In this document: in pieces, positions 1,009 to 18,427 of the stretch
Layout: each line of letters begins with the position of its first letter
How positions within the stretch are numbered: the stretch's first letter is position 1
Origin: a virus
Taxonomy: Duplodnaviria; Heunggongvirae; Uroviricota; Caudoviricetes
Length of the DNA: 18,628 nt
IMG/VR virus record: IMGVR_UViG_2731957842_000007
Span: 1 to 18,628 of that record
Reading direction: 5' to 3' (one strand)
Notes under the pieces: model-generated
What the model saw: only the letters and a program-made list of their open reading frames with translations
Database searches by the model: none
What the model was told of the DNA's origin: nothing
Made by a program: the position numbers and the translations under genes

Positions 1009-1083
1009 GTCCTCTTAGTTAAATGGATATAACGAGCCCCTCCTAAGGGCTAATTGCAGGTTCGATTCCTGCAGGGGACACCA
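1009..1083 (+). tRNA. argW: tRNA-Arg (anticodon CCU), 75 nt with encoded CCA end
   Basis: Cloverleaf readable in sequence: acceptor stem GTCCTCT/AGGGGAC, anticodon loop CTCCTAA (anticodon CCT), T-arm GCAGG-TTCGATT-CCTGC, 3' CCA. An integrase gene follows 160 bp downstream. Confidence 0.9.
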
Positions 1084-1221: not shown

Positions 1222-1245
1222 TTTTACCCACCGGATTTTTACCCA
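1222..1245 (+). repeat. Two direct copies of TTTTACCCA (1222-1230 and 1237-1245), 15 bp apart; the second overlaps the integrase ATG
   Basis: Exact 9 bp direct repeat read in sequence; position between the promoter-like element and the int start suggests recombinase or excisionase binding sites. Confidence 0.4.
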
Positions 1246-2402
1246 TGCTCACCGTTAAGCAGATTGAAGCAGCAAAGCCGAAAGAAAAACCATACCGCCT
1301 TCTCGATGGTAATGGCCTGTACCTTTATGTCCCTGTGTCAGGGAAAAAGGTATGGCAGCTTCGCTACAAGATTGACGGTAAGGAGAAAATCCTGACCGTC
1401 GGAAAATATCCGCTTATGACTTTGCAGGAGGCAAGGGATAAAGCATGGACCGCGAGGAAAGACATCTCGGTTGGCATCGATCCGGTAAAAGCGAAAAAGG
1501 CTTCGTCTAACAACAATTCCTTTAGCGCCATTTACAAGGAATGGTACGAGCACAAGAAGCAAGTCTGGTCAGTAGGCTATGCAACTGAACTTGCCAAAAT
1601 GTTTGATGACGACATTTTACCTATCATCGGCGGCCTTGAAATTCAGGATATTGAGCCTATGCAACTGCTGGAAGTAATCCGCAGGTTTGAAGATCGCGGT
1701 GCAATGGAGCGAGCCAACAAAGCACGCAGAAGATGCGGCGAGGTTTTCCGTTACGCTATTGTCACTGGTAGGGCTAAATATAACCCGGCACCTGACCTTG
1801 CTGACGCCATGAAAGGATACCGCAAGAAGAACTTCCCGTTTCTTCCTGCAGACCAGATCCCTGCATTCAACAAAGCACTGGCAACATTTTCAGGAAGCAT
1901 CGTATCGCTCATTGCGACTAAAGTTTTGCGCTACACAGCACTAAGAACGAAAGAGCTTCGCTCTATGCTATGGAAGAACGTCGATTTTGAAAACAGGATT
2001 ATCACTATCGACGCCAGTGTGATGAAGGGACGCAAAATTCATGTGGTTCCTATGTCAGACCAGGTGGTTGAACTTCTCACTACGCTAAACTCAATCACCA
2101 AACCAGTATCAGAGTTTGTTTTTGCCGGGCGCAACGATAAGAAGAAGCCAATTTGCGAGAACGCTGTACTGCTTGTGATCAAACAAATCGGCTATGAAGG
2201 TCTGGAAAGCGGTCACGGATTCAGGCATGAATTCAGCACGATTATGAACGAGCACGAATGGCCTGCTGATGCTATTGAAGTGCAACTGGCACATGCCAAC
2301 GGCGGATCTGTGCGCGGGATTTACAACCATGCTCAGTATCTCGATAAGCGCAGAGAAGTGATGCAGTGGTGGGCGGATTGGATTGATGAAAAGGTGGAGT
2401 GA
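1245..2402 (+). CDS. intS: Tyrosine site-specific integrase (phage integrase family), 385 aa
   Basis: Starts MLTVKQIEAAKPKEKPYRLLDGNGLYLYVP; C-terminal catalytic region contains R...HGFRHEF...Y motifs. The ORF-track GTG at 1209 is rejected in favour of the ATG at 1245, which gives the expected 385 aa length for the argW-associated integrase. Confidence 0.9.
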   Translation: MLTVKQIEAAKPKEKPYRLLDGNGLYLYVPVSGKKVWQLRYKIDGKEKILTVGKYPLMTLQEARDKAWTARKDISVGIDPVKAKKASSNNNSFSAIYKEWYEHKKQVWSVGYATELAKMFDDDILPIIGGLEIQDIEPMQLLEVIRRFEDRGAMERANKARRRCGEVFRYAIVTGRAKYNPAPDLADAMKGYRKKNFPFLPADQIPAFNKALATFSGSIVSLIATKVLRYTALRTKELRSMLWKNVDFENRIITIDASVMKGRKIHVVPMSDQVVELLTTLNSITKPVSEFVFAGRNDKKKPICENAVLLVIKQIGYEGLESGHGFRHEFSTIMNEHEWPADAIEVQLAHANGGSVRGIYNHAQYLDKRREVMQWWADWIDEKVE

Positions 2403-2419: not shown

Positions 2420-4414
2420 TTATTCAGCCTTAGCAAAAGTGGTCATAGTTGTTCCACTGAAAGTGAATGACCTGTCTGTAAGAGTAACATCCTGAATAGC
2501 AAAGTAATCGCCAACACCAGCGCCATTTACATAAAACTCGAATATCTCAGATGTATTTTCCGGAATAATATTATTAGCAATATAACACGTAGATAAAGAA
2601 CCATTTGTTGATGGTAAAGTTCCAAATAGCGTTGCATCCGATGCAGCATATATCGAACTGCTTAAATAAATATTTATATCAACATTACTCTCATAAGTAA
2701 CAATTAAGTACACCCGGTCGTTAACCTTCCACCCTCTGTCTTTTATCTTAGTATTAAGTGATAGCTTGTTAGAACTAGGGGTCGTTACGGTATTAATGGT
2801 TATTTTTGCTCCTATTGAGTTGTATCTGCTTCTGGTTACTGTATTACCAGTATTGTTCATTGTATAAAGGATTGCTCTGCTTTCTGCAAACGTCCTCATA
2901 TTAATCTTGCCTAAACAATCTCCTTCCATAACTTGTGGGCCAGACACAGTTGCACCAATATAACAATTAGTAAATACAGCATGAGCCCTGTTGTCAGTGC
3001 TTGATGCAAGTAATGAAAGTTTAAAGTTGCCCTGATCTGCAATCCAGCAACTATCAACCTTAACTACAGCATCATTGTCAAGAACAACAAACCTTCCTCC
3101 CTCATTGTAATATCCTACAAAAGCATTTACACCGCTTATTTTTACTACTCCATCTGGAACCGTAAAGATATCGCCTTGTATCGCTTCGCCATAGTACCCG
3201 CCAACAATATTGGTCACTCTGGTATTTAAGTACATGCCATGCCCAATGCCGAACTCAAGGTCACATCCAATTAAGCTTAAACCTTCAATAGGGGAAGTAC
3301 CAGAAGCATAAAAGGCATATTCACCGACCTTATTTGATGCAAATCCACAGTTATTGAACGTTACGCGGTTGTTAGCCCCAGCAAGGTGAACTCCGCGATT
3401 TGGCGCAGGAACAAAAGAACAGCAATCATAGGTATTAAGCCAGTCGTTTATAGTATAGAAGTTCGCCACCACGCCATTGATGAAACGACAATTATGGGTT
3501 CTTCCTAGGTGAACATATTGAATTCGGCAAGCATAGTTGGCGATGTTGTTCCCATCAACTGTAACGTGAGAGATAGATGTGCTACGTCTTATAGAGTCAG
3601 TTTCGTAGTACATGTTGACAACTGTCTCTCCAGTGAACCCACTCCCCGCAATAATGAATGACTTCTCAACGCCATCCCCGAATAGGTCAACAGTGCCTAT
3701 TGTTAAATCAACTGGTGACTTAACATAGTAAGTTCCTGCAGGGACAAACAGCCTCTTTCCTGCCGATAAAGCAACTGCTGCAGCAGCATTAAAGCTAGCT
3801 GAGTTATCTGCCGCTGGATCACCAGTAATGGGGAAAAATTGAGCAACAGAAATATAATCTGCTACCGTCACTTCGTACCATGGCAAAGCAGGAGATGACG
3901 GAAGAGTGCCACTACCACCGGTGTAGATTTTATTATTATACCACCACCAGTTATCAACATTAGATAACACCCCCTCCTGCCACACCCCCCCTAACGAGAA
4001 ATCAAGACCGTAAGAAGTAGCTATCTGACTTAATGATAATGTTGCTCCTCTGTCAGAAGCTAATTCTTGCCTTAATTGGTCAGGGTCATACTTCAGCACA
4101 TTAGGAAAATAGAACTGCTGTGCACCATACGCATCATAAACAGCCATAGAATGGCCTTGCACAGTTACGAACTTGGCAATCTGTCCGTTATATACCGGAT
4201 ATCCAGCAGCGTTAATGATGATTGGTTGCGAAACAGGAACGTGAGAGCCGTCTTCGTTCTCCACATAAACCTGAATCTGGTTTTCAGGATTTACAGGGTC
4301 AGTGTCAATTTTACCGATATAAATTTTGCCATTGGCTACGGCTTTAAAAGAACGAGCCATAGTGAAGAGTTGCGAAGGCATGCTTACCACAACATTTGCG
4401 GTGATATCTGACAT
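2420..4414 (-). CDS. Tailspike protein: P22-like N-terminal head-binding domain fused to a divergent C-terminal receptor-binding domain (probable glycan depolymerase)
   Basis: N-terminus [60 protein letters not shown] matches the conserved head-binding domain of P22 gp9-type tailspikes; the remainder has no P22 gp9 similarity I can see. Start placed at ATG 4414 (GGAG 9 nt upstream) rather than the ORF-track start at 4462. Confidence 0.85.
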
Positions 4415-4439
4415 TTCATTGCTCCAGACGAATGATATG

Positions 4440-4462
4440 ATGCAACCATGATGTGGTTGCAT
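4440..4462. promoter_or_regulatory. Palindromic operator-like site ATGCAACCA-TGATG-TGGTTGCAT in the tailspike/mnt divergent intergenic region
   Basis: 9 bp inverted-repeat arms around a 5 bp spacer; overlaps a TTGCAT -35-like hexamer (4457-4462) oriented towards mnt. Fits a ribbon-helix-helix repressor operator. Confidence 0.45.
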
Positions 4463-4535
4463 ACCGAAATGGTACTATTGAGTATTTATCCAGTAGGTTA
4501 CGATGCCATTCCACCCAACTGGTGAGGCATCAAGG

Positions 4536-4802
4536 ATGTACAGCAAATACGACGAGGCGCAGTTTCACTTGAGACTTCCGCATGAACTCCACGCGAAAAT
4601 TAAACAGCGCGCGAAGATGAATAACAGGTCGCTGAACTCAGAGATAATTGCAGCGATTGAAGAATCATTGGCTAAACAAAGCTCTGCATCCGTTTACATT
4701 GACGATGCAGAGCGTATGGCAGAACAACAATCTGATATGGTTAAGAAAATGGTTTTTGAAACGCTTAAGACCATGTATAGCAATAATAAAAAGGAAACAT
4801 AG
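4536..4802 (+). CDS. mnt: Mnt-like ribbon-helix-helix (Arc/MetJ family) repressor, 88 aa
   Basis: FHLRLPHELHAKIKQRAKMNNRSLNSEIIAAIEESL is a ribbon-helix-helix N-terminal fold; C-terminal DAERMAEQQSDMVKKMVFETLK resembles the P22 Mnt C-terminus as I recall it. ATG at 4536 with GGTGAGG 8 nt upstream; ORF-track start 4503 rejected. Confidence 0.7.
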   Translation: MYSKYDEAQFHLRLPHELHAKIKQRAKMNNRSLNSEIIAAIEESLAKQSSASVYIDDAERMAEQQSDMVKKMVFETLKTMYSNNKKET

Positions 4803-4872
4803 AAATCTAGTTTCCGGCTAAAATGGCATTGCCTTCATGATATCCTGTGAAAAACTAAGGAGAGTTAACCAT

Positions 4873-5358
4873 ATGAAAAAATCACTGTTAATTATCCCGC
4901 TTCTGCTGGTTGGATGCGCAAAAGTAAGTGACTATCAAGCAAGTTGCGAACAACGCTATCAAAAGCTTAGCGATATGGCTAATTGCCTTGATGCCAGAGT
5001 GAAGAACGACTCACGCATGGCATCAGCACCAACACCTAAGCTATATGTCCTTGCTGCAAAGATGCTCGGGCAAGGTGTCGATGAAGGCAAGATAAGTGAC
5101 GCACAGGCAAGACTTGAGCTTCAGAATCTTTATGTTCAATTACAAAGCCAAGAACAAGCCCAACAAATAGCACAAAGCCAAGCATTCCAGCAGGCTTTAT
5201 TGAATTATCAGGCTGTAAACACAATGCAAGCGATCGAGCAAAAAGCGAGACAGCCTGTTATAACTCAACCCTATCCAACACGAGTTGACACTTACACAAA
5301 CTGCAATTCAGGATTTGGAAACACCGTCACATGCAACAGTAGCAGCAACATTAGATAA
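4873..5358 (+). CDS. Predicted lipoprotein with Gln-rich C-terminal region, 161 aa; candidate superinfection-exclusion or moron protein
   Basis: MKKSLLIIPLLLVGC has a signal peptide and lipobox (LVGC); strong RBS AAGGAG 10 nt upstream of ATG 4873; occupies the position where P22-like phages carry sieA/immI genes. Confidence 0.7.
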   Translation: MKKSLLIIPLLLVGCAKVSDYQASCEQRYQKLSDMANCLDARVKNDSRMASAPTPKLYVLAAKMLGQGVDEGKISDAQARLELQNLYVQLQSQEQAQQIAQSQAFQQALLNYQAVNTMQAIEQKARQPVITQPYPTRVDTYTNCNSGFGNTVTCNSSSNIR

Positions 5359-5360
5359 AG

Positions 5361-7475
5361 CTATTCATATTCATTCATACCGCTTAACGAGGCGACAATA
5401 CCAGCTCTCGACAAGCGATTGAATTCATCGCTACCAATAGCATCGCGTATTGCTTTTACGGCGGCTTTATTTGCCATAAATCGGCGTTCCGCCGCCGCTA
5501 ATGCTTCTTTACTTCCGCCAGCTCTTACTGCTTTCGTGGCTTCCTGAACTGCTTTCTCTATCGCATATCGGCCGCTACGAGTGGTGGCAATTTTAGATAC
5601 AGCACCTTTTAACCCGGCGCCAACTAAAGCACCTGCGGCAGCGCCTGCAATGCCACCTCCTGCTCCACCAACAATGGCACCTGATGTTGAGTTGGCAATT
5701 GCATTTAACACTGTTGATGTGATGTTGGATAAACCGGCATCCAGATCGCGTAGTACATTGGCAGTTCTCCCTGTTCTTTCAATATACTGCTGAGGTTTCA
5801 CTGCTGCTCTTGCAAGAGTGCCATATACATCAGCAATTCTTCCGAGTTCTGAGGAATATCTGCTAATGGCTTTTACATTTTGTGGGGTAAGTATCCCTGC
5901 GATATGGTTAATTCCTGCTGCATCAGCTTTGCCACCACGTACACCATGCGAGATAGCATCTTGCAACATTGATGATATAGCAGGAACACGCTCTGATTCT
6001 GGCAGCGCGCGGATCATAGAATGGAATCCAGCAGGACCATTAAGACCTTTAGCTGACGATGCTTGAAGAGATTTTACTCCATTCGTAATCAGTGCATCTG
6101 TTGCCAAATCACGCCCAAAAACAGACTCTGCACTCTCTTGTGCGGACAGCCTCGCTTTAGACAGATCATTAGCTTTTTGCCAGTCATCAAAAAATCCGCC
6201 GTTTTCCGCCATTGTGCGCATATCATCAGTAATTGCCCGACGTATTTCCCCTGCTCTCCTTGCCGCATTTGCCTCTCCGCTACGCTTATATTTTTGCTCC
6301 GCATCAGCAAATTTCGCTCTCCATGCTTTCATGCCATCAAATGTTACTCCACCTTGATTGTTTGCCTGAACAAACTGTTTCATTTCAGGAGTAAGCGGTA
6401 TGCCAGCAGATCGCTCTGCCTGAATAACGGCATTACCATTTAGCATTCTTGCTTTTTGATTTGGCATTGTTGACCGCACGTCATCCCATGCCGCGCGCTC
6501 GGCATCCTTCATCTGATCAAGATTTTGAAGAATCCTTTGTTTTATAGCCGCACTTTTTTCTGATGCCGTTCCAGATGCGGCCCCAAATTCATCAAGGTTT
6601 CGACTTAACTTTGATGATATTTCGTTAAATGCTGCCTGATGGGCGTCCTGAACAATTCCTGGTGTTGATGCCAATGCGCCTTCGGCTTGTGCAATTCCAC
6701 GACTTCCAGATCGCATTCCTGGTGTTAATGCGTTTATATCAATTCCAGCAGACTCAGCCGCTTTTGCTACATCTTCGGACACATTAGCGGCCTGACTGGC
6801 AATTGACTGACGCCCAGCACCTGACTTTGCCATCCTGGAAACATCATTAGCAGAATTCAGTGCTGCACCACCAAGAGCCTGTGAAACCCTTGGCGCAATA
6901 ACGCGCCCGACACCTGAAAGAACGCCTTGAGCACCAATATTGATACCACCGTTAATGGCAGCATTTTGTGCAAAATCACCCTCCTGATTTGCAGCATCAG
7001 CAAGAGAACCTGCAATCATGTTTCCTGCGGAACCGATATCTCCAGCGAGCTTTGCTGGCGCTCCAGCAGCTTTTGCCGCTGTGCCAATTGGCAGGAGATA
7101 CCCACCAATTGTTTCACCGGCTTGCGCATAAGGGTCTGTCGGTCGATCGACTGGACGATAGACATCATCCAAAACCTTGGGGCCACCAAGCCCCTGGCTG
7201 ATTGCATTAATCAGACTTGCGCCACCCTGCAATACGTCAAATGGTATGTTTACCAGACCACGGCCAGCCTGTTCTGCAATTTGCCCTGCGCTTTGACCAC
7301 CAGTGAGCCAGTCAGTGGCTTTTCCTACCAGAGATTGTTCTTCTGGCTGCGATTGGTTTTGAGTGGATTGATCACCAGAAGACAGCATCTGAGCAATGCG
7401 ACGTGCTCCCTCAGTATCGCCGGCAGCATCAGCATTCCTTAACGCCGTCATCAACTGTTCGCGACTATAGGCCAT
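5361..7475 (-). CDS. DNA ejection/transfer protein, P22 gp16-like, 704 aa
   Basis: Third gene of a 7-20-16-like ejection operon on the minus strand; Gly/Ala-rich; start overlaps the stop of the upstream gene. Confidence 0.65.
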
Positions 7476-8749
7476 TACTGCCCTCCGAGATATTTATTAA
7501 TCAGGTCATCATCAGAAAGCTGCTGTTGAGACGGTTGTATGTCCTTCCCGTATTTCTGTTGCATACGTTTCTGAGCCATCTCAGTGGTTTTTATGATTGT
7601 TTTGATGGCTGCTCTGGCTGATTTTTCAGACTGATTTGGGGACAAACTACCAATAGCATCCATTACCTTTTGCCCCTCGGCATTACTTAAAGCCCCCATC
7701 CCTTTCATCTGCTGAATGCCAGATAAGAATCCCTGAGATTTCAGTGTGTCAACCAGAGTTTCTGTATCAGCAGCCTCTGTTCCTGGAATGAATCTACTCG
7801 ATAGTGGGTTTAGGTTTGTTCCGAAATATCCAGTGAATCCCGGGCTATTAAGAACTTTTGTAGCCGTCTCTATCGTTCTGGAAAGATTATCCATTCCAGA
7901 GTTGTACGCATCAGCCTTATCTCGCTTTGCCTGCTCCATAGCTTGCTGATTCTGCAATCTCTTGTCCTGCAATTCAGCAAGTTTTAAGGCATTAGTTTCA
8001 TTTGCGATGAGTCTGTCGTATTTCTTGTCCTCTAATTCCATCCGACGAAGATTGACATTTTGTTGCGCAATATTGTTGCTTGCCCACCCTCTGGCATTTG
8101 TCATGTCATTATTACGGATTGTTTCGTTAATTTTTTGCTGATCCTGCTGGCGACCAACCATCTTATCCTGAACAGCAAACGCCTTTTCTGGTCCAAGCGC
8201 ACCGAGAGACATAGTAGTCAGCATGTGTGATAGCTGCTCTGGATTCTGGATACCTGTCTGAATCATCCAGTCAGCATTAGCACCAACGCGATTTAACCTG
8301 TCCTTGTTGTCAGTAATGAATTTGCTGTAGGCTTCCGGTCCCTGAGAAAGAGCGACGTTAGCCCTCATGGCTAAATCGCCCATATCGTTGCGTTGCTGAT
8401 CATTAAGACCGGAAAACGCCTGTTGTGCCTGTGCAACAAACGCTGGATTTTCCTGGGCAAACTTAAATAGTCCCGATGGATCACCAGAAGCCCATGCATC
8501 AGCATGAACCTTATTGAACGCATTAATCGCTTCCTGTTGCTGTTCCTGCTTATAAATATCAGCAACTCCAGCCAGACCACGTAACGCGGTCAGACCAACG
8601 TTATTTGCACCTGAGCGAGCCAGTTCATTGTTTTCGCGGATCAGACCAAGCGTTGCGTTAATGTCGCTTGCCTTTGGCGCATTCTCATTTTGCGTACCGA
8701 TGCCAGCCAGAAAACCACCAGAATTAATACCCTGTTGCCACGTAGCCAT
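7475..8749 (-). CDS. DNA ejection/transfer protein, P22 gp20-like, 424 aa
   Basis: Position between gp7-like and gp16-like genes; Gln-rich low-complexity segments typical of ejection proteins; GGGG RBS upstream of ATG at 8749. Confidence 0.65.
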
Positions 8750-8759
8750 TGATTACCCC

Positions 8760-9452
8760 TTAAAACAACGAGCCAAGCAGACCAAGACCGCCTCCGATCG
8801 CAGCCCCCCACGGAGTTGATGAACCAATTAATTTCGCAAGTCCGGCCCCAGCAATAGCACCAGACGCACCTCCGCCAATAGCAGATTGCATTGCTGATGG
8901 TCTGTTGGCATTTGCCGCTGCAAGAGCCGCACTTTGCTGCGAAATCTGACTCATGTTGTTGGCATATGTCTGCCCGGCGTTTGCCTGACCTTGCAGTGCG
9001 CCAAGACCAATGTTTGCCAGATTCTGGTAGTTGTTCATCTGACCAGACAGCCACTGCTGACCAAGCGTTGGTGCGATTGTTGCTAACTGATTACCGGTTG
9101 CAGTGGAACCCAATCCACCTGTTGCTTCCGCTGCCGCCAGACTCTGATAGCGAGCCTGACCAGCAAGATCTTTGTACTGCTGAGAGTTGTAATACTGGTT
9201 TAGCGCCTGACCTTGCCCATCCAGAGACGATAAGTTCTCGAGGCTGCCGACATACTTCTCAGCCAGAGGAGTAAACGGTTTCAGGTTGTTCATGATGGTG
9301 TTGAACTGCTGATTTTGCAGGTCTGCGGCATACTTCTGAGCTTCTGCTGCATACTTTGCGCTTTTATCAGAACTGCCACCTTTCCCGCCTTTTTCAGGGC
9401 AATAAGGTTCCTCGCCGCGCAGTTTTCTGCCCAGCTTAAATGCATATAACAT
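8760..9452 (-). CDS. DNA ejection protein, P22 gp7-like, 230 aa
   Basis: MLYAFKLGRKLRGEEPYCPEKGGKGGSSDKSAKYAAEAQKYAADLQNQQFNTIMNNLKPF closely matches the P22 gp7 N-terminus as I recall it; length matches gp7 (229 aa). Confidence 0.8.
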   Translation of the reverse strand: MLYAFKLGRKLRGEEPYCPEKGGKGGSSDKSAKYAAEAQKYAADLQNQQFNTIMNNLKPFTPLAEKYVGSLENLSSLDGQGQALNQYYNSQQYKDLAGQARYQSLAAAEATGGLGSTATGNQLATIAPTLGQQWLSGQMNNYQNLANIGLGALQGQANAGQTYANNMSQISQQSAALAAANANRPSAMQSAIGGGASGAIAGAGLAKLIGSSTPWGAAIGGGLGLLGSLF

Positions 9453-9454
9453 GG

Positions 9455-9913
9455 CTATCTCCCGTGATTCAGGAAGTCGATTAGTTCTTCGCGTGTGGCG
9501 CTGTAAAAAGTCACGTCATCCACGCCTTTAAAGTATTTCTTGATGGTTCCTACACGATTAAGGCCAATCATTGCGCAGTAAATCTGCCCGTGGCGGAATT
9601 TGCGTGCGGCGAACGATGTGACGCACTGAACGGTGGTGTTAGTCAGAATGTATCGCCAGAACGCCAGCCCGATTTCCTTGCTGAAGCCACGAACCTCTGG
9701 CAGGTACATGGCGTGGCAATCGAATGTCAGCGGCTGAATCTCCTGATAGTAAACAATGCCGCCAAACTGACCGTACACGTTAACCTCAAAGTAACGGCAT
9801 TCAGGCTTGTAGTCGTATCCATCACCGTTGTTGCTTCCGGCAATAATGTCAGGGTGATTTCCGACTGCTTCGATCAGGTCGATGTTTCGCGTTGGTTTGA
9901 ACTGAATCATCAC
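9455..9913 (-). CDS. P22 gp14-like protein, 152 aa
   Basis: [35 protein letters not shown] matches gp14 of P22-like phages; sits between the needle and gp7 genes as in P22. Confidence 0.7.
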
Positions 9914-10758
9914 TGCTCCGCGATTATCTTGATGGTTGTGGCAGTAAACGCCGCACCATTCGACTGAATGGTTAACGTGCTGCCATTTGTGGCAAGAAAG
10001 CCGTCTTTATCCACGCTGAAGAACGTAGCTAACAAGATGTTATCGGTTGTTGTCGCCGAGTTGCGACTGCTTACCAGTGTGTCAGGAACAGAGCCGGAAA
10101 AGGTTAGCTGCATTGACCTGTTTGCGGTTCCGCTGGGCCACGTCCCGACAATCGACAGCTTGAAGAACAGGGTTTTGTTCTCGTTGAACACAACCATCTT
10201 GTTGTTAACGGTGTCGAAGAATGGTGCCAACGAGCCGGATGACGGCGTGAGCGTTTTCAGCAGGCTAACAAGGTTGGTCGGCGCTGTCGGGATGGTTACT
10301 GATACGCCAGAGTAAACAACCTCTGACTTCTTGCGTGTGGTTGCATACTCCAGAGCATCAATGCGCGTTTCATGGTCTGAAACCTGCGACTCCAGCGACT
10401 GAAGTCTGGTATCAAGCGACGCAATATCGCTTTCATTCTGAGTGATTCGTGTTTCATGTTCCTGAAGAGTTGATTCTGCCTGACTGATTCGCTCCTCATG
10501 ATTAACAAGCGTTGCTTCCGCAGCAGAAATTCGCTGCTCATGGTCAGCGAGAATCACATCCTGCTCATCGTTCCTGACTTGTGCGTCATAAGCGCCCTGT
10601 CCGGCCTCGTTGGCCTTGTTAGCCACGTTACCAACATCAGTGCCCTGTGCGATAACGTAAAGCAGATACGACTGCGAGAAGATATTGCGTGGAAGGACTG
10701 ATGTGTCGAGCCGTGTAGCCTGAATGATTACCGGCACATTGAGATTCGAATCCGCCAT
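9910..10758 (-). CDS. Tail needle protein, P22 gp26-like, with a divergent C-terminal knob domain, 282 aa
   Basis: N-terminus [43 protein letters not shown] matches the conserved gp26 N-terminal domain; central heptad-like repeats ([43 protein letters not shown]) fit the trimeric coiled-coil needle; C-terminal 120 aa differ from P22. Confidence 0.8.
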
Positions 10759-11552
10759 TACTCAATCCTTATCTGAGCGCCAGACAGAGTGACAGGTGAC
10801 TTCGTGATAACGCGCAATTTGAAACCAATGTTTTTCCTGATGCGCCCTACTTTCTTCCACAAAACGCGTTTGTCGTAAACGAACGGTTCATTCTGCTCAA
10901 TCATCTGCTCACGCCCGTAATTGATGCCGTCAGTGGTTGCAGAGAGGAACAGGCGGTCGGCGTACTGAGCTACGCCAGTGGATGATTCCACCTCCAGATC
11001 GAAGCATCTGGCGTTATCCGCTTTGAACAGTGGAGTAAACAGCAGGTGTTCCTGTTGCTTGTCGTACTGGCTGCTGATATCGAACTGCAATTTCCCGGTC
11101 ACGGACTCCAGCTTATCGCCGCACGTTATCTGATTGCCTTCATAAATGAAGTCGATAGCGCGGTACACATCGTCATACAGGCCTGTTTTCAACACACACC
11201 ATTGCGGACCATTGGCGCTTGAAGATGCGTCGTACACGAGGACGTGGCGCGGAAGGTGGATAATCAGCAGTTCATGCGCATCAAATCGCAGCGATTCCAT
11301 CACACCATCAGCCAGTTCATCAGCAGTGTAGGAGCGAAGAATTTTCTCAATGCTCGCGCTGGCGATTGGTGATACCTGACCTGATCCGATGATGTATACA
11401 GACGGCGCACCCGTTGCCGGATTGCTGATAAACGCATACGAATCAGCGAATGGCGTTTTGCAGTAAGTTCCGGCAATGCCTTTCTGCACCATCAGCGATG
11501 GTTGTGCGACATACAAAGCGGCACCATCGGAGGTCAACATGACAGTAGTCAT
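10758..11552 (-). pseudogene. 5'-truncated gp10-like tail accessory gene (C-terminal 264 codons only), at the deletion junction
   Basis: Occupies the gp10 position upstream of gp26; P22 gp10 is about 470 aa but this ORF is 264 aa. The codon immediately upstream of its ATG (11553-11555 on the minus strand) is TAA, and its first codons are antisense to the start of the N-like gene. Confidence 0.6.
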
Positions 11553-11838
11553 TACATATCTGGCTGACGATAACGCCAGAAATCGCCGCAGAGCACGCAG
11601 ACAGGCTCAACGTGAACAGGCAATGCAAGAGCAGCGACTGGCGCGAAAAATTGCGCTAAAGCTCTCTGGTTGCGTCAGAGCAGATAAAGCAGCATCACTC
11701 GGAAGCCTTCGCTGCAAGAAGGCAGAAGAAGTCGAGCGTAAACAGAATCGTATTTACTACCGCAAGCCACGCAGTGAAATGGGTGTGACTTGCTCAGGCC
11801 GCCAGAAAATGAAATTAGGCAGCAAACCACTTATTTGA
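11539..11838 (+). CDS. N-like transcription antiterminator with an arginine-rich motif, 99 aa
   Basis: MTVVITYLADDNARNRRRARRQAQREQ resembles the N-terminal arginine-rich RNA-binding motifs of lambda N and P22 gp24 (which begins MTVITY). GGAGG 5 nt upstream of ATG 11539; first gene of the rightward operon. ORF-track start 11476 rejected. Confidence 0.55.
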   Translation: MTVVITYLADDNARNRRRARRQAQREQAMQEQRLARKIALKLSGCVRADKAASLGSLRCKKAEEVERKQNRIYYRKPRSEMGVTCSGRQKMKLGSKPLI

Positions 11839-11846
11839 GGTGAGAT

Positions 11847-12317
11847 ATGACAAAATCATGGAGCGTACCTTTTCCTGAATCAGAAACTGAACATGATGGA
11901 ATGCCTGTTTTCTGGAGATTCCAGGCGACAGTTGAAGAAGATGGGATAAAAATATTCGCACTTCAATATATAGCTTTTCATCAGACAGAGCATTATGCAT
12001 GGTTGGTTCCTGCGCATTGGATTGTTAATTTTAAACCAGCACCAAATCAGTGGTTACAGGAATGGAAACAAAGGAGAAATAGATATGCAATTAAGAAAGT
12101 AGCAAAAAATGCAGAAAGATCTTTTGCATTCCCAACGAAGAAACTTGCCATTGAGAGTTTATTGCGCCGGAAGAAATACCATTTAATGAGAATCAAACAA
12201 GATTTGGCTGTTGTATCAACTCTTGTTGATGGGATGAAGAATATTGATACATCAACACCAGATATTGAATATAACTTTGGACACAACCAAGAAACAGAAA
12301 ATTGGGTATTCTACTAG
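11847..12317 (+). CDS. Hypothetical protein, 156 aa, in a visibly A+T-rich segment; moron candidate
   Basis: RBS GAGGTGAG before ATG 11847; Trp- and Lys-rich soluble protein with no family I recognise; followed immediately by a terminator. Confidence 0.6.
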   Translation: MTKSWSVPFPESETEHDGMPVFWRFQATVEEDGIKIFALQYIAFHQTEHYAWLVPAHWIVNFKPAPNQWLQEWKQRRNRYAIKKVAKNAERSFAFPTKKLAIESLLRRKKYHLMRIKQDLAVVSTLVDGMKNIDTSTPDIEYNFGHNQETENWVFY

Positions 12318-12341
12318 GCCGCATAGTCGGCCTTTATTTTT
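12317..12341 (+). terminator. Rho-independent terminator after the 156 aa ORF
   Basis: Stem GGCCG (12317-12321), loop CATAGT, stem CGGCC (12328-12332), followed by TTTATTTTT. Confidence 0.6.
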
Positions 12342-12363
12342 GGCATAAACAACAGAGGCTAAC

Positions 12364-12660
12364 ATGGAATTTAAAGGTACTGAAGGTAAGTGGGAAATAA
12401 TGATGGATGGCGATGAGATTAAAATCATCCAGGCAGACTCACTTGAAAATGGCGCAGGCTGGCGTTCGTATATTGCAATCTGTGAGGAAGTTCAATGTAT
12501 TGAAGATGCCAATCTAATAGCGGCAGCACCTGACCTTCTCGAAGCACTTCAGTTATTACTTAAGCAATCCAAAAATAGAACAACGACAACATATCCAGAA
12601 TGGTATGGAGCTGTTAATAAAGGTCTTGCAGCAATCAGCAAGGCTCTGGGAGGTGAATGA
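12364..12660 (+). CDS. Hypothetical protein, 98 aa
   Basis: ORF with an AGAGG RBS-like element upstream; its stop overlaps the start of the next ORF (ATGA), indicating translational coupling. Confidence 0.5.
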   Translation: MEFKGTEGKWEIMMDGDEIKIIQADSLENGAGWRSYIAICEEVQCIEDANLIAAAPDLLEALQLLLKQSKNRTTTTYPEWYGAVNKGLAAISKALGGE

Positions 12661-12869
12661 TGTGCGAGTTTTATGAAGCAGATATCAAACGCCCAGAAAT
12701 GGCAAGTGATGCGACATTACGTGATTACTTCGCTGCTAAGGCTATGGCAGCAATAGTGCGCAGATGGGACGGACATTCCTTTGGCGGTGGACAGAATTCA
12801 CCACAGTACAAAGAATTAGCAGATGATGCCTACTTTATTGCTGATGCCATGCTCAAAGCTCGCGAATAA
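12657..12869 (+). CDS. Hypothetical protein, 70 aa, translationally coupled to the upstream 98 aa ORF
   Basis: ATGA start/stop overlap at 12657-12660; no recognisable family. Confidence 0.45.
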   Translation: MMCEFYEADIKRPEMASDATLRDYFAAKAMAAIVRRWDGHSFGGGQNSPQYKELADDAYFIADAMLKARE

Positions 12870-12964
12870 GCACTGTGTATTCATTCCAACGAGTGAATAC
12901 ACGGAGCAATGTCGCTCGTAACTAAACAGGAGCCGACTTGTTCTGATTATTGGAAATCTTCTTT

Positions 12965-12992
12965 GCCCTCCAGTGTGAGGGCAATTTTTTTT
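12965..12992 (+). terminator. Rho-independent terminator upstream of the coiled-coil gene
   Basis: Stem GCCCTC (12965-12970), loop CAGTGT, stem GAGGGC (12977-12982), followed by AATTTTTTTTT. Confidence 0.55.
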
Positions 12993-13004
12993 GATGGAGG
13001 ATAT

Positions 13005-13973
13005 ATGAGTGAAGTAACAGATTTAGTTGTTATTGAAAAAGCAAATGCAATGACTGTATTTCAGTCTGCCGACCAGATTGAAGAAATCCTTCAAAAGGTA
13101 GAACGTGAAGTTATGTCCTTTGTGCCTGATATCACAACGGCAAAGGGCAGAAAGGAGGTCGCTTCTCTGGCGTATAAAGTTGCGCAGACGAAAACATATC
13201 TCGATGGTCTTGGCAAAGACCTTGTTGCTGAACTGAAGGAAATTCCAAAGCTAATTGATGCCAACCGCAAGACAGTGCGCGATCGCCTTGATGAACTGAA
13301 AGCCAAGGCACGCCAGCCTCTTACTGATTATGAAGAGGAACAGGCGCGGATTAAAGCTGAAGAAGAAGCTAAGGCAGCAGCTGAAGCTCTCGCAAAGCAA
13401 ATTGAGTCTGACCATGAAATAGCGATTTTGATGGATCGCGAATTTGACCGCCAAAGAGAAGAGGCAAGACTCAAAGCGGAGCAGGAAAAGCGAGAGCATG
13501 AAGAACGCTTAAAAAGAGAAGCTGAAGAGAAAGCCAGAGCTGAAGCCGAAGCAAAGGCAAAAGCCGAAATTGAAGCAGCAGCAAGGCGAGAAGCAGAAGC
13601 TAAGGCCGCAGCGGAACGTGCAGAGCGTGAACGCATTGAAGCCGAGCAACGAGCACAGCGCGAAGCAAAAGAGGCAGCAGAACGAGCTGAAAGAGAAAAG
13701 CAGGCAGCAATTGAAGCAGAACGCAGAAAAGCACAGGAGGAGGCTGAACGAATCCGTCGCGAGGTTGAAGCAAAAGAGCAAGCCAGAATAGCAGAAGAAA
13801 AAAGAATCAAGGAAGAAGAAGAGCGTAGAGCAAAGGATAAAGCTCACCGGAAAGAAGTAAATAACAAAATACTTGCTGACCTTATCAAGGTTGGTGCATC
13901 AGAAGATGTTGCTAAAAATATCATAACAGCCATCGTAAAAGGCGAAGTATTCGCAACAAAAATAACCTACTAA
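13005..13973 (+). CDS. Hypothetical coiled-coil protein with a long Glu/Ala/Lys/Arg-rich repetitive central region, 322 aa
   Basis: ATG 13005 preceded by GGAGG; the ORF-track start 12909 lies upstream of the terminator and is rejected. Central 200 aa are AEAKA/EAERR-type repeats; globular N- and C-terminal segments. Confidence 0.6.
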   Translation: MSEVTDLVVIEKANAMTVFQSADQIEEILQKVEREVMSFVPDITTAKGRKEVASLAYKVAQTKTYLDGLGKDLVAELKEIPKLIDANRKTVRDRLDELKAKARQPLTDYEEEQARIKAEEEAKAAAEALAKQIESDHEIAILMDREFDRQREEARLKAEQEKREHEERLKREAEEKARAEAEAKAKAEIEAAARREAEAKAAAERAERERIEAEQRAQREAKEAAERAEREKQAAIEAERRKAQEEAERIRREVEAKEQARIAEEKRIKEEEERRAKDKAHRKEVNNKILADLIKVGASEDVAKNIITAIVKGEVFATKITY

Positions 13974-13997
13974 TAAAACCAACATAAGGAACCACCC

Positions 13998-14129
13998 ATG
14001 ATTTACGCAATCGCGGGAGGAGCTCGCATGGGTGCCTTCCAACTAAATGAATCTTTACTTGAACGAATCACCCGTAAATTACGTGACGGATGGAAAAGAG
14101 TTGAGGTCTTATTATGCGCAATGAAATAG
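13998..14129 (+). CDS. cIII-like small protein (FtsH protease inhibitor family), 43 aa
   Basis: MIYAIAGG...ESLLERITRKLRDGWKR matches the conserved core of lambda CIII as I recall it; AAGGA RBS upstream; located upstream of erf as in lambdoid PL operons. Confidence 0.5.
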   Translation: MIYAIAGGARMGAFQLNESLLERITRKLRDGWKRVEVLLCAMK

Positions 14130-14266
14130 CCATCAATCACCAGATGCTTCGTGCTGCACAGAACAAAGCAGTAATAGCCAGATTTATTGGTGATTCAAAA
14201 ATGTGGCTTGAAGCAAATAAAGCGATGAAATCAGCTATCAACCTTCCGTGGTATCGCAGGAAATGA
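14114..14266 (+). CDS. Kil-like small protein (putative), 50 aa
   Basis: IARFIGDSKMWLEANKAMK resembles the lambda Kil family from memory; start overlaps the cIII-like ORF, and its stop overlaps the next start. Confidence 0.35.
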   Translation: MRNEIAINHQMLRAAQNKAVIARFIGDSKMWLEANKAMKSAINLPWYRRK

Positions 14267-14421
14267 GTTTCACAGATAACTGGTCAGACGAAGAATTCAT
14301 TCGTCAGATGAAAGAATTAATCGGTAACGAAGGAGATATTCATGTCACTTGCAACCACAGTGAAGGAGAGCAAGTTACAGAGACGCATGTACACGCAGAA
14401 AGCTCTCTGGTATCGCCATAA
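14263..14421 (+). CDS. Hypothetical small protein, 52 aa
   Basis: Chained by ATGA overlap to the upstream small ORF and lying directly upstream of erf; no family recognised. Confidence 0.3.
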   Translation: MSFTDNWSDEEFIRQMKELIGNEGDIHVTCNHSEGEQVTETHVHAESSLVSP

Positions 14422-14522
14422 TGGTGACCGCGAAGGAATGCGGGTATGCCTTAATTTGTCCCGAGTCGAAGTATTAAATCAGCGTTATTTCCTTGGGCCG
14501 TGTCCATTCTGAGAACAATCAT

Positions 14523-15128
14523 ATGAGCAAAGAATTTTACGCAAGACTGGCAGCTATTCAGGAGAATCTGAACGCGCCAAAGAATCAGTACAACTCATTC
14601 GGCAAATATAAATACAGAAGCTGCGAAGATATTCTTGAAGGCGTTAAGCCGTTACTGAATGGTCTGTTTTTATCAATCAGCGATGAAGTTGTGTTGATTG
14701 GTGATCGGTATTACGTGAAAGCCACGGCAACTATTACCGATGGCGAAAACAGTCATACGGCAACTGCTCTTGCACGAGAGGAAGAAAGCAAGAAAGGAAT
14801 GGATTCTGCACAAGTTACTGGAGCTACAAGCTCTTATGCGCGCAAGTATTGCCTCAATGGTTTGTTCGGCATTGATGATGCGAAAGATGCAGATACCGAC
14901 GAACATAAACATCAGCAGAACGCAGCAGCAAAGCAATCAAAACCATCACCTACACCTGAACAGGTTCTAAAAGCATTCACTGACGCAGCAATGCAAAAAA
15001 ACACCGTGGAAGAGCTTAAACAGGCGTTCGCCAAAGCGTGGAAGATGCTCGAAGGAACACCGGAGCAGCACAAAGCGCAGGACGTTTACAACATCAGACG
15101 AGACGAATTAGAAGGAGCTGCTGCTTAA
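14523..15128 (+). CDS. erf: Erf-family single-strand annealing recombinase, 201 aa
   Basis: MSKEFYARLAAIQENLNAPKNQYNSFGKYKYRSCEDILEGVKPLLNGLFLSISDEVVLIGDRYYVKATATITDGENSHTA matches P22 Erf as I recall it. ORF-track TTG start at 14493 rejected in favour of ATG 14523. Confidence 0.85.
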   Translation: MSKEFYARLAAIQENLNAPKNQYNSFGKYKYRSCEDILEGVKPLLNGLFLSISDEVVLIGDRYYVKATATITDGENSHTATALAREEESKKGMDSAQVTGATSSYARKYCLNGLFGIDDAKDADTDEHKHQQNAAAKQSKPSPTPEQVLKAFTDAAMQKNTVEELKQAFAKAWKMLEGTPEQHKAQDVYNIRRDELEGAAA

Positions 15129-15511
15129 TGGCACATTCGATTACTGTAAGACTAAACAAGCCCGCAAGAGAGTTTCAGGCCGGGGAAAATATCGGATTCA
15201 ACATCCGTGCTGGCGTTCAGTATTACGATCGCCAGACAAAAAAGAAAGAATGGACAAACTACAGCGCCGTTGTATTTGCCAAGCCGGGAGCGCAAGCGGA
15301 TTACTACCGTAGTGTTCTTGTTGAAGGTGGCATTGTGGAAATTACCGGAGAAAACATCAGGGTTGATGTTTATCAGGGGCAAAATGGTCAATCAATCACT
15401 CTTGAATTACTGAATGCAAAGATTGGATTTGCAACTTCAGGAAACAGCCAACAGCAGCAAAGTAGCAATCATCAAAATCATCCTGAATACGACGATTCAA
15501 TCCCCTTCTAG
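15128..15511 (+). CDS. SSB-like single-stranded DNA-binding protein with an acidic C-terminal ...DDSIPF tail, 127 aa
   Basis: ATG overlaps the erf stop (TAATG); the C-terminus EYDDSIPF matches the conserved SSB tail motif (DDDIPF); the N-terminal region is compatible with an OB fold. ORF-track start 15038 rejected. Confidence 0.6.
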   Translation: MAHSITVRLNKPAREFQAGENIGFNIRAGVQYYDRQTKKKEWTNYSAVVFAKPGAQADYYRSVLVEGGIVEITGENIRVDVYQGQNGQSITLELLNAKIGFATSGNSQQQQSSNHQNHPEYDDSIPF

Positions 15512-15534
15512 ATTAGCAAAATAAGGATTCCATT

Positions 15535-15828
15535 ATGCCAGCGCCTCTGTATGGTGCGGATGACCCGCGCCGCTGTTCCGGCAATTCCGTATCGGAGGTG
15601 CTGGATAAATTCAGGAAAAACTACGACCTGATAATGTCTCTACCGCAGGAAACGAAAGAGGAAAAGGAATTTCGCCATTGTATATGGCTTGCAGAGAAAG
15701 AAGAACGCGAGCGAATTTACCAGACATCAATCCGCCCATTCCGCAAAGCCACATATACCCACTTCCCTGAAATTGACCCGCGCCTGCGTAATTACCGCTC
15801 ACGCTATGGCGCTATCAGTAATGACTGA
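15535..15828 (+). CDS. Hypothetical protein, 97 aa
   Basis: ORF with an AAGGA RBS-like element upstream of ATG 15535; no family recognised. Confidence 0.45.
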
Positions 15829-15838
15829 GGAATTTACC

Positions 15839-16003
15839 ATGAGAGGACTTGCATACAATCCCGGCATTCTTCCGGCAGAAATGATTATTCGCCAACGCGT
15901 AAAGCCAATGCCATCGAGAGAGGAATTGCTTAAGAGAAATTCTTTTCCATCAGTGAATCAAAACAAATATCTGAATGCGATGTTGCGGAGTGGGAAGAAA
16001 TGA
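15839..16003 (+). CDS. Hypothetical small protein, 54 aa (alternative start at 15821)
   Basis: GAGG 8 nt upstream of ATG 15839; its stop overlaps the next start (ATGA at 16000-16003). The 5' part of the ORF-track ORF 15689..16003 overlaps the upstream gene and is rejected. Confidence 0.3.
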
Positions 16004-16476
16004 AACAAATGTCACTAATTGAGATGGATGGATTCCTGAAAGGTAAATGCATCCCCCGAGATTTAAAGGTTAACGAAACAAACGCTGAATATCTGGTGCG
16101 TAAATTTGCTGAAGCGGAGGCCAAGTGCGCGGAGATGGCAGCGGAAAATGCGGGGCTGAAGTCTGGCGCTATGGACGAAATCAAGGTTATCAACCGTGGA
16201 GGGCAGGCATATTGCGTAAAAGATGGAGTGCAAGTTAATCCCATATATGCAAGAGGGTGGAATGATTATCGCGCAAAGTCTATGCAATCAGACACCCCAG
16301 CCACCGATGCTTTCCTGGCTGAAGTCAGGGCTAAGGCGTTTGATGACCTTTGCGCGGCGTTCGTTAAGCACGCGTCGGTGTCCGGGCTGGACGATGGCGA
16401 CTGCGTTACGGTGAAAGAGGCGACTGACGCCCTGCTGCATTGTGCGGAACAGCTTCACAAGGGAGTGCATTCATGA
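16000..16476 (+). CDS. Hypothetical protein, 158 aa
   Basis: Translationally coupled on both sides (ATGA overlaps at 16000 and 16473); no family recognised. Confidence 0.5.
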
Positions 16477-16706
16477 GCAACCTACTACCATGTCCATTCT
16501 GTGGCGGTGCAGCGCACGTTGCCAGCGAAGCAGATCACCCTGAATATGGCTCTGGCGGTCGATTCTATTTCGTTCGATGCGGTACGTGTCGCGCTCAATC
16601 TGGTAGCAAATATGCAGCGCCTGGAAATGACTGCGCGATTTTTTATTCAGAGGTTAGAGCAGAGTGGAATCAACGAGCAAAGGAGGCGAACAGTGAGCAA
16701 GATTGA
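16473..16706 (+). CDS. Lar-family restriction alleviation-like protein, 77 aa
   Basis: [12 protein letters not shown]...CGTC contains the CPFCG-type Cys motif characteristic of Lar-family small proteins; ATG overlaps the upstream stop. ORF-track start 16440 rejected. Confidence 0.5.
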   Translation: MSNLLPCPFCGGAAHVASEADHPEYGSGGRFYFVRCGTCRAQSGSKYAAPGNDCAIFYSEVRAEWNQRAKEANSEQD

Positions 16707-17268
16707 CTATCAGGCACTGCGTGAGGCGGCGCAGAACGCGAAAGATTTAGGTGGGATTAAGAATTACAAGCGAGGCGAGCAAGCTGTTGCCGAATTTGAG
16801 TCCCTGATAACGCCACACATTGTGCTGGCACTGCTGGATGAACGGGAAAGAAACCAGCAATACATCAAACGCCGCGACCAGGAGAACGAGGATATTGCGC
16901 TAACGGTGGGGAAACTGCGTGTTGAGCTGGAAGCCGCAGAGAAGCGCAACGCAAAATTACAAAGCGAGAATGCATACATCCGCAACCGGTACAAAGAACT
17001 GGACCTGTTAATCGGGAAAAACATTCTGGTCATGCAGGCTGCGATTATCGAATGGCAGGCAACTGGCGACGCTAAGAGCGGACTGGCATGGATTTATAAC
17101 ACACTGTTTGGCCCTGGCGAATTGCCGGACGAATCTGAGAAAGATGCTCAGGCCTACTTTAATCGCAAATATGCACCGATTGACGAAAAGCTTATGGAGC
17201 TTCACAAGTGGTTTTGGGAACAAAGTGAAGCCGAGCGCGCCGCCGGCATTCGCATCAAAGGAGAGTGA
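16693..17268 (+). CDS. Hypothetical coiled-coil protein (possibly Ead/Ea22-like), 191 aa, GTG start
   Basis: AGGAGG 6 nt upstream of GTG 16693; the ORF-track start at 16501 would overlap the Lar-like gene for 200 bp and is rejected. Confidence 0.5.
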   Translation: MSKIDYQALREAAQNAKDLGGIKNYKRGEQAVAEFESLITPHIVLALLDERERNQQYIKRRDQENEDIALTVGKLRVELEAAEKRNAKLQSENAYIRNRYKELDLLIGKNILVMQAAIIEWQATGDAKSGLAWIYNTLFGPGELPDESEKDAQAYFNRKYAPIDEKLMELHKWFWEQSEAERAAGIRIKGE

Positions 17269-17269
17269 T

Positions 17270-17920: not shown

Positions 17921-17982
17921 CCTGCAACTTGCCGTCAAAGGTGAATAACAATCCTCGCACTCGCGGGGATTTCTTTTATCTG

Positions 17983-18007
17983 AACTCGCTACGGCGAGTT
18001 TTGTTTT
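17983..18007 (+). terminator. Rho-independent terminator
   Basis: Stem AACTCGC (17983-17989), loop TACG, stem GCGAGTT (17994-18000), followed by TTGTTTT. Confidence 0.55.
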
Positions 18008-18019
18008 ATGGAGATGATT

Positions 18020-18319: not shown

Positions 18320-18361
18320 GACGTAACCAATATTCGAATTGAAGAACTGAAAGAACACCAA

Positions 18362-18383: not shown

Positions 18384-18392
18384 TTGCCTGAT

Positions 18393-18408: not shown

Positions 18409-18427
18409 CTATTCGGAGATAGCACTC

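Follow-up and report, generated by a model that had tools for sequence, protein, structure and literature searches.

Gene content and boundaries of the argW element

The window, by which we mean the whole 18,628-nucleotide stretch analysed, comes from the yfdC–argW–dsdC locus of E. coli VL2874 (draft genome JTFE01), where a 17.6-kb prophage remnant of the Sf6/HK620 type (Lederbergvirus, P22-like) is integrated at argW. The integration target, a tRNA-Arg(CCU) gene, was located at 1009..1083 on the plus strand by ARAGORN and by the Rfam tRNA model. Two copies of a 16-bp att core, CTGCAGGGGACACCAT, bracket the remnant: attL lies at 1069-1084, in the 3' end of argW, and attR at 18702-18717 on the source contig, 74 bp past the end of the window, with dsdC, dsdX and dsdA directly beyond. 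The core is identical to the core region of Sf6 attP, and the att arms are 86/89 and near-identical matches to the Sf6 attP flanks. An insertion into the 3' end of argW that leaves a copy of the core on either side is what an IntS/TorI module is expected to produce, and the genes agree. An intact intS-type integrase of 385 amino acids (1245..2402, plus strand; Pfam Phage_integrase, Phage_int_M and Arm-DNA-bind_3) is transcribed away from argW and adjoins the tailspike gene, while torI, encoding a 66-residue excisionase (18428-18628, plus strand; identified by translation and phrog_66), sits at the opposite end by attR, as in the KplE1-type layout. The integrase region is 96.9% identical in DNA sequence to the attP-int region of Sf6, and its position matches that of the annotated intS in E. 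coli A3. On the same grounds we rejected a P22-style layout, in which int would close the early-left operon.

The distal part of the late operon is retained on the minus strand at 2420..10758, as recognized by Pfam matches (Head_binding, Inj_translocase, P22_gp7, DUF2824, Phage_tail_NK) and by gene calls on the source contig, which include Phage_P22_gp16. It consists of the tailspike gene (2420-4414/4462), gp16 (5361-7475), gp20 (7475-8749), gp7 (8760-9452), gp14 (9455-9910) and gp26, a tail needle of the Sf6 type (9910-10758). Together with the gp10 fragment described below, the Pfam-defined gene order is gp10-gp26-gp14-gp7-gp20-gp16-tailspike, that of a P22-like tail/ejection module, and the DNA identity of these genes to Sf6 and to the E. 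coli A3 prophage is 92-98%. A plus-strand gene of the Arc/Mnt family in Pfam (4536-4802) is embedded in the operon, as is an ORF of 161 amino acids.

On the other side, what remains of the early-left operon runs on the plus strand from 11847 to 18628 (Pfam ERF and Anti-RecBCD_p2; source-contig gene calls with Pfam). It starts with three small ORFs from 11847, followed by a tL2A-like terminator at 12963-12984, found by a terminator scan at a position homologous to the annotated tL2A of Sf6, and by a homologue of Sf6 gene 33 (13005-13973). The operon also holds cIII and kil, erf (14523-15128, Pfam ERF), abc2 (15535-15828, Pfam Anti-RecBCD_p2), and DUF2737, Lar-like, Ead/Ea22 and DUF551 genes, all on the plus strand. 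With the exception of the gp10 fragment, every remaining ORF in the element is uninterrupted and has the length of its intact homologues.

Missing are the genes that lie between gp10 and N in a P22-like phage, as the sequence-only reading of this DNA had claimed. Pfam, PHROG and the gene calls on the source contig revealed no gene for head, lysis, replication or immunity functions anywhere in the element; terminase, portal, scaffold, coat, gp4, full-length gp10, lysis genes, Q, replication genes and repressor/cro are all absent between attL and attR. The element is closed by attL in argW and by attR, followed by dsdC; head and replication genes therefore cannot sit elsewhere on it, which disposes of an observation that the earlier reading had named as fatal to its own interpretation. 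Because the virion and life-cycle gene set is missing and gp10 is cut to residues 218-472, the element is a defective remnant and not a functional member of Lederbergvirus.

The gp10 fragment, the N leader and their junction

The late operon ends, as first proposed, in a gp10 gene of 264 codons that is truncated at its 5' end (minus-strand ORF 10758-11552). The ORF matches Pfam Phage_stabilise at profile positions 212-469 of 469 only (E=3e-160) and phrog_578, "head closure Hc3", at positions 214-470 of 486. Profiles, megablast and ungapped registers agree that the genuine gp10 sequence, 10758..11526, encodes residues 218-472 of the 472-residue gp10, which is the head-closure (tail hub) protein known in Sf6 as gp8. 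Megablast matches to Sf6 gene 8, HK620 and more than 1,800 E. coli records end at 11526-11534. A gp10 that is naturally short was rejected, given the start of the profile matches near 212-214 and the lengths of the homologues inspected, all of which fall between 465 and 472 amino acids; full-length homologues have 472, so the intact phages with a gp10 of about 264 residues that might have refuted the truncation did not materialize.

The first nine codons of the ORF (11527..11552, minus strand; MTTVMLTSD) are an accidental 5' extension. They are antisense to the ribosome-binding site of N and to N codons 1-5, so that the claim that the first gp10 codons are the reverse complement of the start of N applies to codons 1-9 and extends to the N ribosome-binding site as well. 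Codon 10 is the first true gp10 sequence and corresponds to gp10 residue 218. In-frame ATGs occur at both 11552 and 11540. The CATG at 11538-11541 does provide an ATG on both strands, and it is the start of the gp10 fragment called in GenBank (260 aa, KRR59537.1); the 264-codon version begins at 11552, four codons upstream, and does not share its start with N. The in-frame TAA said to precede this ATG is not there: the TAA of GTAATG is out of frame, and the reading frame is open upstream as far as a TGA at 11609-11607, 18 codons before ATG-11552. Direct reading of the sequence revealed nothing like a Shine-Dalgarno sequence before either ATG. In exact look-ups the 264-residue product had no match, and the 260-residue version matched a single contig, the source. 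The "DNA stabilization protein" of 260 or 264 residues is a pseudogene.

The plus-strand gene that meets it, 11539..11838, encodes a full-length N-like antiterminator of 99 amino acids (phrog_271, E=7e-37), equal in length and start to the annotated N of vB_EcoP-611R6. An arginine-rich motif, NARNRRRARRQAQR, characteristic of N proteins, lies near the N terminus at about residues 12-25. From 11525 onward the DNA is 98.5% identical to the "antitermination protein N" region of vB_EcoP-611R6. Only 12-14 nucleotides of the N leader remain (11527..11538), including GGAGG at 11529-11533, five bases ahead of the N ATG, as had been noted. The leader in 611R6 extends about 300 nucleotides further upstream and carries operator/promoter-like sequence and, about 190-235 nucleotides upstream of N, a boxA-like GCTCTTTAA and a hairpin. 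None of this was recovered in the window: a boxA pattern search of its entire length returned 0 matches, a promoter and terminator scan found no promoter-like site upstream of N, and an Rfam scan found no element except the argW tRNA. N is thus without pL, nutL or boxA, in accordance with the sequence-only reading, and is an orphan with neither promoter nor target.

The two parental sequences abut in the interval 11523..11534. We mapped the junction with a three-way alignment and with ungapped registers set against the N leader of 611R6 and four alleles of gp10; the breakpoints were located by comparison with Sf6, HK620, 611R6 and A3, an alignment that the earlier reading had called for. Antisense homology to gp10 extends up to 11526 and homology to the N leader begins at 11525, with no intervening sequence, which places the crossover within a shared CA at 11525-11526. 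Across 11525-11534, 8 of 10 positions agree between the two parents, and over the slightly longer stretch 11523-11534, 9 of 12 do; random pairs of positions drawn from the intact comparator score at least 9/12 in just 0.29% of cases (p about 0.003). Exact homology at the crossover is 2 bp only. Because the exact overlap is so short, the label "microhomology-mediated" rests on the 8/10 match, which was recognized post hoc.

An origin of the junction by IS-mediated deletion was rejected: neither a transposase nor an IS sequence or scar is present in the window or at the junction, though such elements do play a part in some relatives. Megablast against 5,426 complete E. coli genomes yielded no record that spans the junction, and exact searches of GTDB representative genomes and of JGI metagenome contigs each gave 0 matches. 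The junction is carried by one strain only, from a single draft assembly, with no second occurrence in the collections searched.

Origin of the junction

With high probability, the interval 10758-11860 marks where an Sf6/HK620-type prophage at argW suffered an internal deletion. The flanks are collinear and correctly oriented relative to Sf6, vB_EcoP-611R6 and the intact prophage of E. coli A3; the similarity between the joined sequences is a short patch, and no IS element or site-specific recombination site lies at the junction. These are the features of a short-homology (illegitimate) deletion. The extent of the loss can be read from E. coli A3 (NZ_CP195960.1), whose intact 39.4-kb prophage at argW has some 30 genes on about 18.3 kb opposite the gap. 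These comprise the N-terminal half of gp10, gp4, coat, scaffold, portal and both terminase subunits, along with lysis genes, Q, the nin region, replication genes, cII, cro and cI. On the Sf6 map the gap is about 20.9 kb.

In this event, illegitimate joining linked gp10 codon 217/218 to a point 14 nucleotides upstream of the N start across the 2-bp exact overlap (8/10 when imperfect matches are counted). About 18 kb was removed, from the N-terminal half of gp10 through the head genes, terminase, lysis, Q and pR', nin and the replication genes, and with it went cII, cro, pL/oL, nutL and the repressor. What is left is a cryptic prophage made up of attL-intS, the distal genes of the tail/ejection module up to the gp10 pseudogene, a promoterless N without nut, the remaining early-left genes, and torI-attR. 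The position of the right endpoint, between pL/nutL and N, makes sense if loss of the repressor is survivable only when pL and pR are also removed.

Such an element should be unable to make particles, replicate or lyse its host. Both large operons would be transcriptionally orphaned and the remaining genes silent, the late operon because pR' and Q are lost, and the early-left operon because pL and nutL are lost while a terminator of the tL type remains. Excision may still be possible, as it is for the K-12 remnant KplE1, since no damage is apparent in intS, torI or either att site.

A single deletion joining the tail module to the early-left module, as the sequence-only reading had envisaged, is supported by the collinear flanks and the abutting homologies, and is the simplest reading; nested successive deletions would leave the same final junction. 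That several deletions or rearrangements produced the present junction in succession is improbable, but it has precedent in argW relatives with multiple lesions per prophage, such as H3 with two junctions and VG48B2 with a deletion plus IS421 and IS2. Against it, no residue of the missing 18 kb is left, the junction bears no IS or IS scar, and all other genes are intact, which makes one event the most economical account.

It is less probable still that the remnant is not inert, either as an excisable 17.6-kb island of spare parts, given intact attL-intS and torI-attR ends and surviving ORFs without interruptions, or through low-level production of a C-terminal gp10 fragment that poisons tail-hub assembly of related superinfecting phages. 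The sequence offers no support for expression of the gp10 fragment, which lacks both a promoter and a ribosome-binding site. If the spare-parts version were true, Sf6/HK620-type phages could gain tailspike and ejection genes by recombination, with altered host range as a consequence.

Two further explanations have very little probability. An assembly artefact that fused two prophage fragments in JTFE01, the strain really carrying an intact prophage, would account for a junction found on one contig only in public collections and derived from a draft assembly. However, the two sides share just 2 exact bases (8/10 overall), far too few for a merge in a k-mer graph; the orientation and order of the flanks fit a simple deletion within one att-bounded element at the correct chromosomal locus; and analogous but different internal deletions at argW occur in finished genomes. 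Alternatively, the short gp10 might be natural and functional, and the element a functional mosaic, satellite-like, that retains its tail and recombination modules and is mobilized by a helper phage. Intact intS, torI and att cores and the uninterrupted remaining ORFs are compatible with this, but the match of the gp10 fragment to the family profile starts midway along it, and the 5' end of the fragment consists of antisense N sequence that supplies no ribosome-binding site. The pac site of P22-like phages is carried in the small terminase gene, and that gene was deleted along with everything else that packaging needs. The restriction of the junction to one strain, and the unrelated random deletions in neighbouring genomes, as expected under neutral decay, also speak against it.

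Comparison with other argW prophages and related phages

Internal deletion of a P22-like prophage at argW is also seen in E. coli VG48B2, H3, O104:H4 2011C-3493 and 2020CK-00188. All four resemble the window in what they have lost, a central region with head, lysis, replication or immunity genes, and in what they keep, the tail and early-left ends. Each genome has endpoints of its own, and IS elements take part in some of the deletions but not in the junction described here: in VG48B2 a truncated coat gene is joined to the gene-33 homologue and IS421 and IS2 are also present; in H3 gp10 is joined to endolysin and a second junction links partial Q and dnaB; in O104:H4 2011C-3493 an IS1-associated junction adjoins a DUF2560 gene; and in 2020CK-00188 gp10 is joined to a fragment of a replication gene. 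The deletions in other E. coli are independent events. Because different, independent deletions recur at this locus, the junction in VL2874 is an instance of routine prophage decay and, with the other argW-dsdC cases, illustrates how P22-like prophages decay: the central lethal region is lost and the att-proximal modules survive. Beyond the correct annotation of the 17.6-kb block as a dead prophage remnant its significance is small, although a breakpoint mapped this precisely could serve to mark the strain or lineage of E. coli VL2874.

The intact prophage of A3 has its locus, flanking genes and module order in common with the remnant. Identity between the two is 97.7% over yfdC-intS and gp16-gp26 (5376-10357) and 97.8% over gene 33-abc2; what sets them apart is the 18.3-kb segment, with its roughly 30 genes, that is absent from the remnant. 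Sf6 and HK620 likewise have the same gene order, the Sf6-type needle knob and the att core, with 88-98% DNA identity over gp8(gp10)-gp9-gp10-gp11, attP-int, torI and gene 33-cIII-kil. Unlike the remnant, Sf6 is a complete phage of 39 kb. Its N (gene 37) is of the lambda type, and it carries oac; the N allele of the window is a different one, closest to that of vB_EcoP-611R6, and no O-antigen modification gene is present there.

The nearest parallel among remnants is KplE1 (CPS-53) of E. coli K-12, which has the argW-dsdC site and the IntS/TorI module in common with the window. KplE1 is about 10 kb in size, has a different cargo and is not known to carry a P22-type tail module; the window remnant has 17.6 kb, an intact tail/ejection module, an early-left operon and a single clean junction. 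In both elements intS is transcribed away from argW and torI lies by attR, and both are defective, lacking an immunity module (PMC2951348). In KplE1 the intS promoter overlaps attL, TorI acts as the excision factor, and the element is excisable though a remnant (PMC2951348).

Breakpoints of the gp10'/N junction

Our analysis supports the interpretation, offered in the sequence-only reading, that the join between gp10' (the retained 3' fragment of gp10, minus strand) and the plus-strand antiterminator gene N is the scar of an internal deletion in a P22-like prophage. Positions 10300-12400 were searched by megablast against phage genomes and 5426 complete E. coli genomes. The many matches on the gp10 side all stop at 11526-11534, the N side matches phage vB_EcoP-611R6 (611R6) at 98.5% from 11525 on, and no record in these sets spans the junction. 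Base-by-base registers of the window with the 611R6 N leader and with gp10 alleles from four sources, Sf6 and the E. coli strains 47-1826, S10 and VG48B2, place the breakpoints at 11526 on the gp10 side, up to which the window tracks gp10, and at 11525, where the N leader starts; the crossover is a CA common to both parents (11525-11526).

Between 11525 and 11534 the two parents share 8 of 10 bases (CAnCGGnGGT), and over 11523-11534 they share 9 of 12. Among 200,000 position pairs drawn at random from the intact comparator, 0.29% gave a match of at least 9/12 across the join, for a test window picked after the data had been seen. The similarity is consistent with short-homology illegitimate recombination. 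Nested multiple deletions would lead to the same final form as a single event, and we consider such a history improbable. That the join is an assembly chimera is very unlikely indeed, as only two exact bases are common to both sides and the join lies within a coherent, att-bounded element.

The gp10 fragment and the N gene

The 264-codon gp10' open reading frame (10758-11552, minus strand; translation MTTVMLTSDGAALYVAQPSLMVQ...) aligns with positions 212-469 of 469 in the Pfam profile Phage_stabilise (E = 3e-160), the C-terminal part only, and with 214-470 of 486 in PHROG 578 ("head closure Hc3"), bearing out its description as a gp10-position frame without its N-terminal part. Residues 218-472 are kept in Sf6 gene 8 coordinates, the join following codon 217, and the gp10' stop overlaps the start of the Sf6-type tail needle gene. 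The first gp10' codons had been described as antisense to the start of N; this is confirmed, and it extends over codons 1-9, which are antisense N sequence and not gp10. Two in-frame ATGs are present on the minus strand, at 11552 (264 codons) and, from CATG, at 11540 (260 codons, the GenBank form, KRR59537.1), and inspection of the sequence found a Shine-Dalgarno before neither. As to the suggestion that CATG serves as the start on both strands, the ATG at 11540 exists, but it yields the 260-codon form, the 264-codon frame starting at 11552. The supposed in-frame TAA before the start did not hold up: the TAA in GTAATG belongs to another frame, and the gp10' frame is open upstream as far as a TGA at 11609-11607. 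We infer that gp10' is a pseudogene.

N (11539-11838, plus strand; 99 aa) was rightly recognised as an N-like gene with a GGAGG ribosome-binding site: it matches PHROG 271 (E = 7e-37), GGAGG lies upstream at 11529-11533, and its length and start are those of the annotated N of 611R6. Just 14 nt of its leader remain 5' of the ATG. N opens with a near-palindrome, ATGACAGTAGTCAT (11539-11552), which accounts for the antisense ATG codons and for the resemblance of the truncated gp10 frame to a complete ORF. N is also mosaic: the 5' part, where the arginine-rich motif is encoded, has matches in few phages only (611R6, phi367, phi296), and many Stx-converting phages, e.g. 933W, share the 3' end and the 156-aa ORF downstream of it at 98-99%.

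Extent of the element and of the loss

Contig JTFE01000024.1 of E. coli VL2874 contains a stretch identical to the window. The window begins with the host gene yfdC, followed by argW (tRNA-Arg(CCU)) and an intS-type integrase gene transcribed away from the tRNA, and ends with the excisionase gene torI; dsdC, dsdX and dsdA lie within ~200 bp beyond torI on the contig. One copy of a 16-bp core, CTGCAGGGGACACCAT, lies at 1069-1084 and a second one 74 bp past the window end; the flanks are almost identical to the attP arms of Sf6. Because core copies stand at both ends, the element is a 17,633-bp unit closed on both sides. The tail needle gene (9910-10758, minus strand; Pfam Phage_tail_NK) is followed downstream, on the same strand, by gp14, gp7, gp20, gp16 and a tailspike with a P22 head-binding domain. 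The recombination module is of the IntS/TorI type known from KplE1, HK620, Sf6 and CUS-3, in which intS is served by a promoter of its own that overlaps attL, and the excision factor is encoded at the opposite prophage end (PMC2951348); this layout explains why the integrase lies beside the tailspike and not at the end of the early-left operon.

The intS and tailspike stops are 17 bp apart (2402-2420) with no O-antigen-modifying gene between them, whereas this interval holds oac in Sf6, an acyltransferase in the O104:H4 prophage and three small ORFs in E. coli A3. At 18366-18408, just upstream of torI, a hairpin resembling a terminator, with a T-run (CCGCCTGATGGCGGTTTTTT), precedes 16 nt (TTGCAGGTTCGATTCC) that exactly repeat the argW T-arm sequence at 1054-1069; this copy may be left over from a tRNA fragment, or it may match the generic T-arm consensus by chance. 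In a chromosome record of E. coli GPEC60-33-648 (NZ_CM142764.1; L007, 8045-9652) torI adjoins intS and the two are not at opposite prophage ends; the order early-left operon, torI, intS, tailspike resembles that of attP. This suggests that the prophage is tandem or permuted, that it integrated by another route, or that there is a problem with the assembly.

The intact prophage of E. coli A3 at the same locus is 39.4 kb core to core and 97-98% identical to much of the window. The gap corresponds to A3 locus positions 14873 to about 33153 (~18.3 kb) and holds the N-terminal half of gp10, gp4, a WDGH-domain gene, coat, scaffold, portal and both terminase subunits; small ORFs, lysis genes, Q and nin genes; and helicase and replication initiator, cII, cro and a LexA-family repressor. 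The corresponding stretch of the Sf6 map measures ~20.9 kb and also takes in pL/oL, nutL, pR and pR'/qut. Both maps agree with the proposed loss of head, lysis, replication and immunity genes by deletion, and the two flanks, which abut by their 5' ends, are oriented as in the product of a simple internal deletion of such a prophage. A deletion removing the repressor would be survivable in the cell only if pL and pR also went, and the junction deletion removes both.

Predicted silence and comparison with other argW prophages

A pattern search found no boxA in the whole window, a promoter/terminator scan of the window found no promoter-like site upstream of N, and an Rfam scan of the window returned nothing except the tRNA; the reported lack of a PL promoter or nut site before N is thereby upheld. 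611R6 has an operator/promoter-like sequence and a boxA-like GCTCTTTAA with adjacent hairpin 190-330 nt upstream of N, a region entirely missing here. A terminator-like hairpin at 12963-12984 occupies the position homologous to the annotated tL2A of Sf6, and even a stray transcript would therefore get as far as cIII, kil, erf and abc2 only with N and nut. The remnant of the late operon lacks Q and pR'. N thus appears to be an orphan gene, and both large modules are probably silent. With intS, torI and the two att sites apparently intact, the element may still be excisable, as KplE1 is (PMC2951348). That it is a functional satellite, or that the gp10 fragment is expressed, is very unlikely: no expression signals support either reading, and the junction occurs in one strain only.

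The junction was found in none of the 5426 complete E. coli genomes, the GTDB representative genomes or the JGI metagenome contigs, and the exact 260-aa gp10' product occurs in one contig only. In four other E. coli genomes a P22-like prophage at argW-dsdC has a central-region deletion, a different one each time: coat' joined to a gene-33 homologue, with IS421 and IS2, in VG48B2; gp10 joined to endolysin, plus a Q'/dnaB' junction, in H3; an IS1-associated loss from lysis through N in O104:H4 2011C-3493; and gp10 joined to a replication-gene fragment in 2020CK-00188. This pattern suggests recurrent independent decay at argW-dsdC, with a survivorship bias for the two att-proximal modules. Because other E. 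coli carry different internal deletions at the same site, we read the VL2874 element as a previously undescribed, though ordinary, defective prophage, its junction a further example of a common process of decay, and do not see in it a new kind of element.
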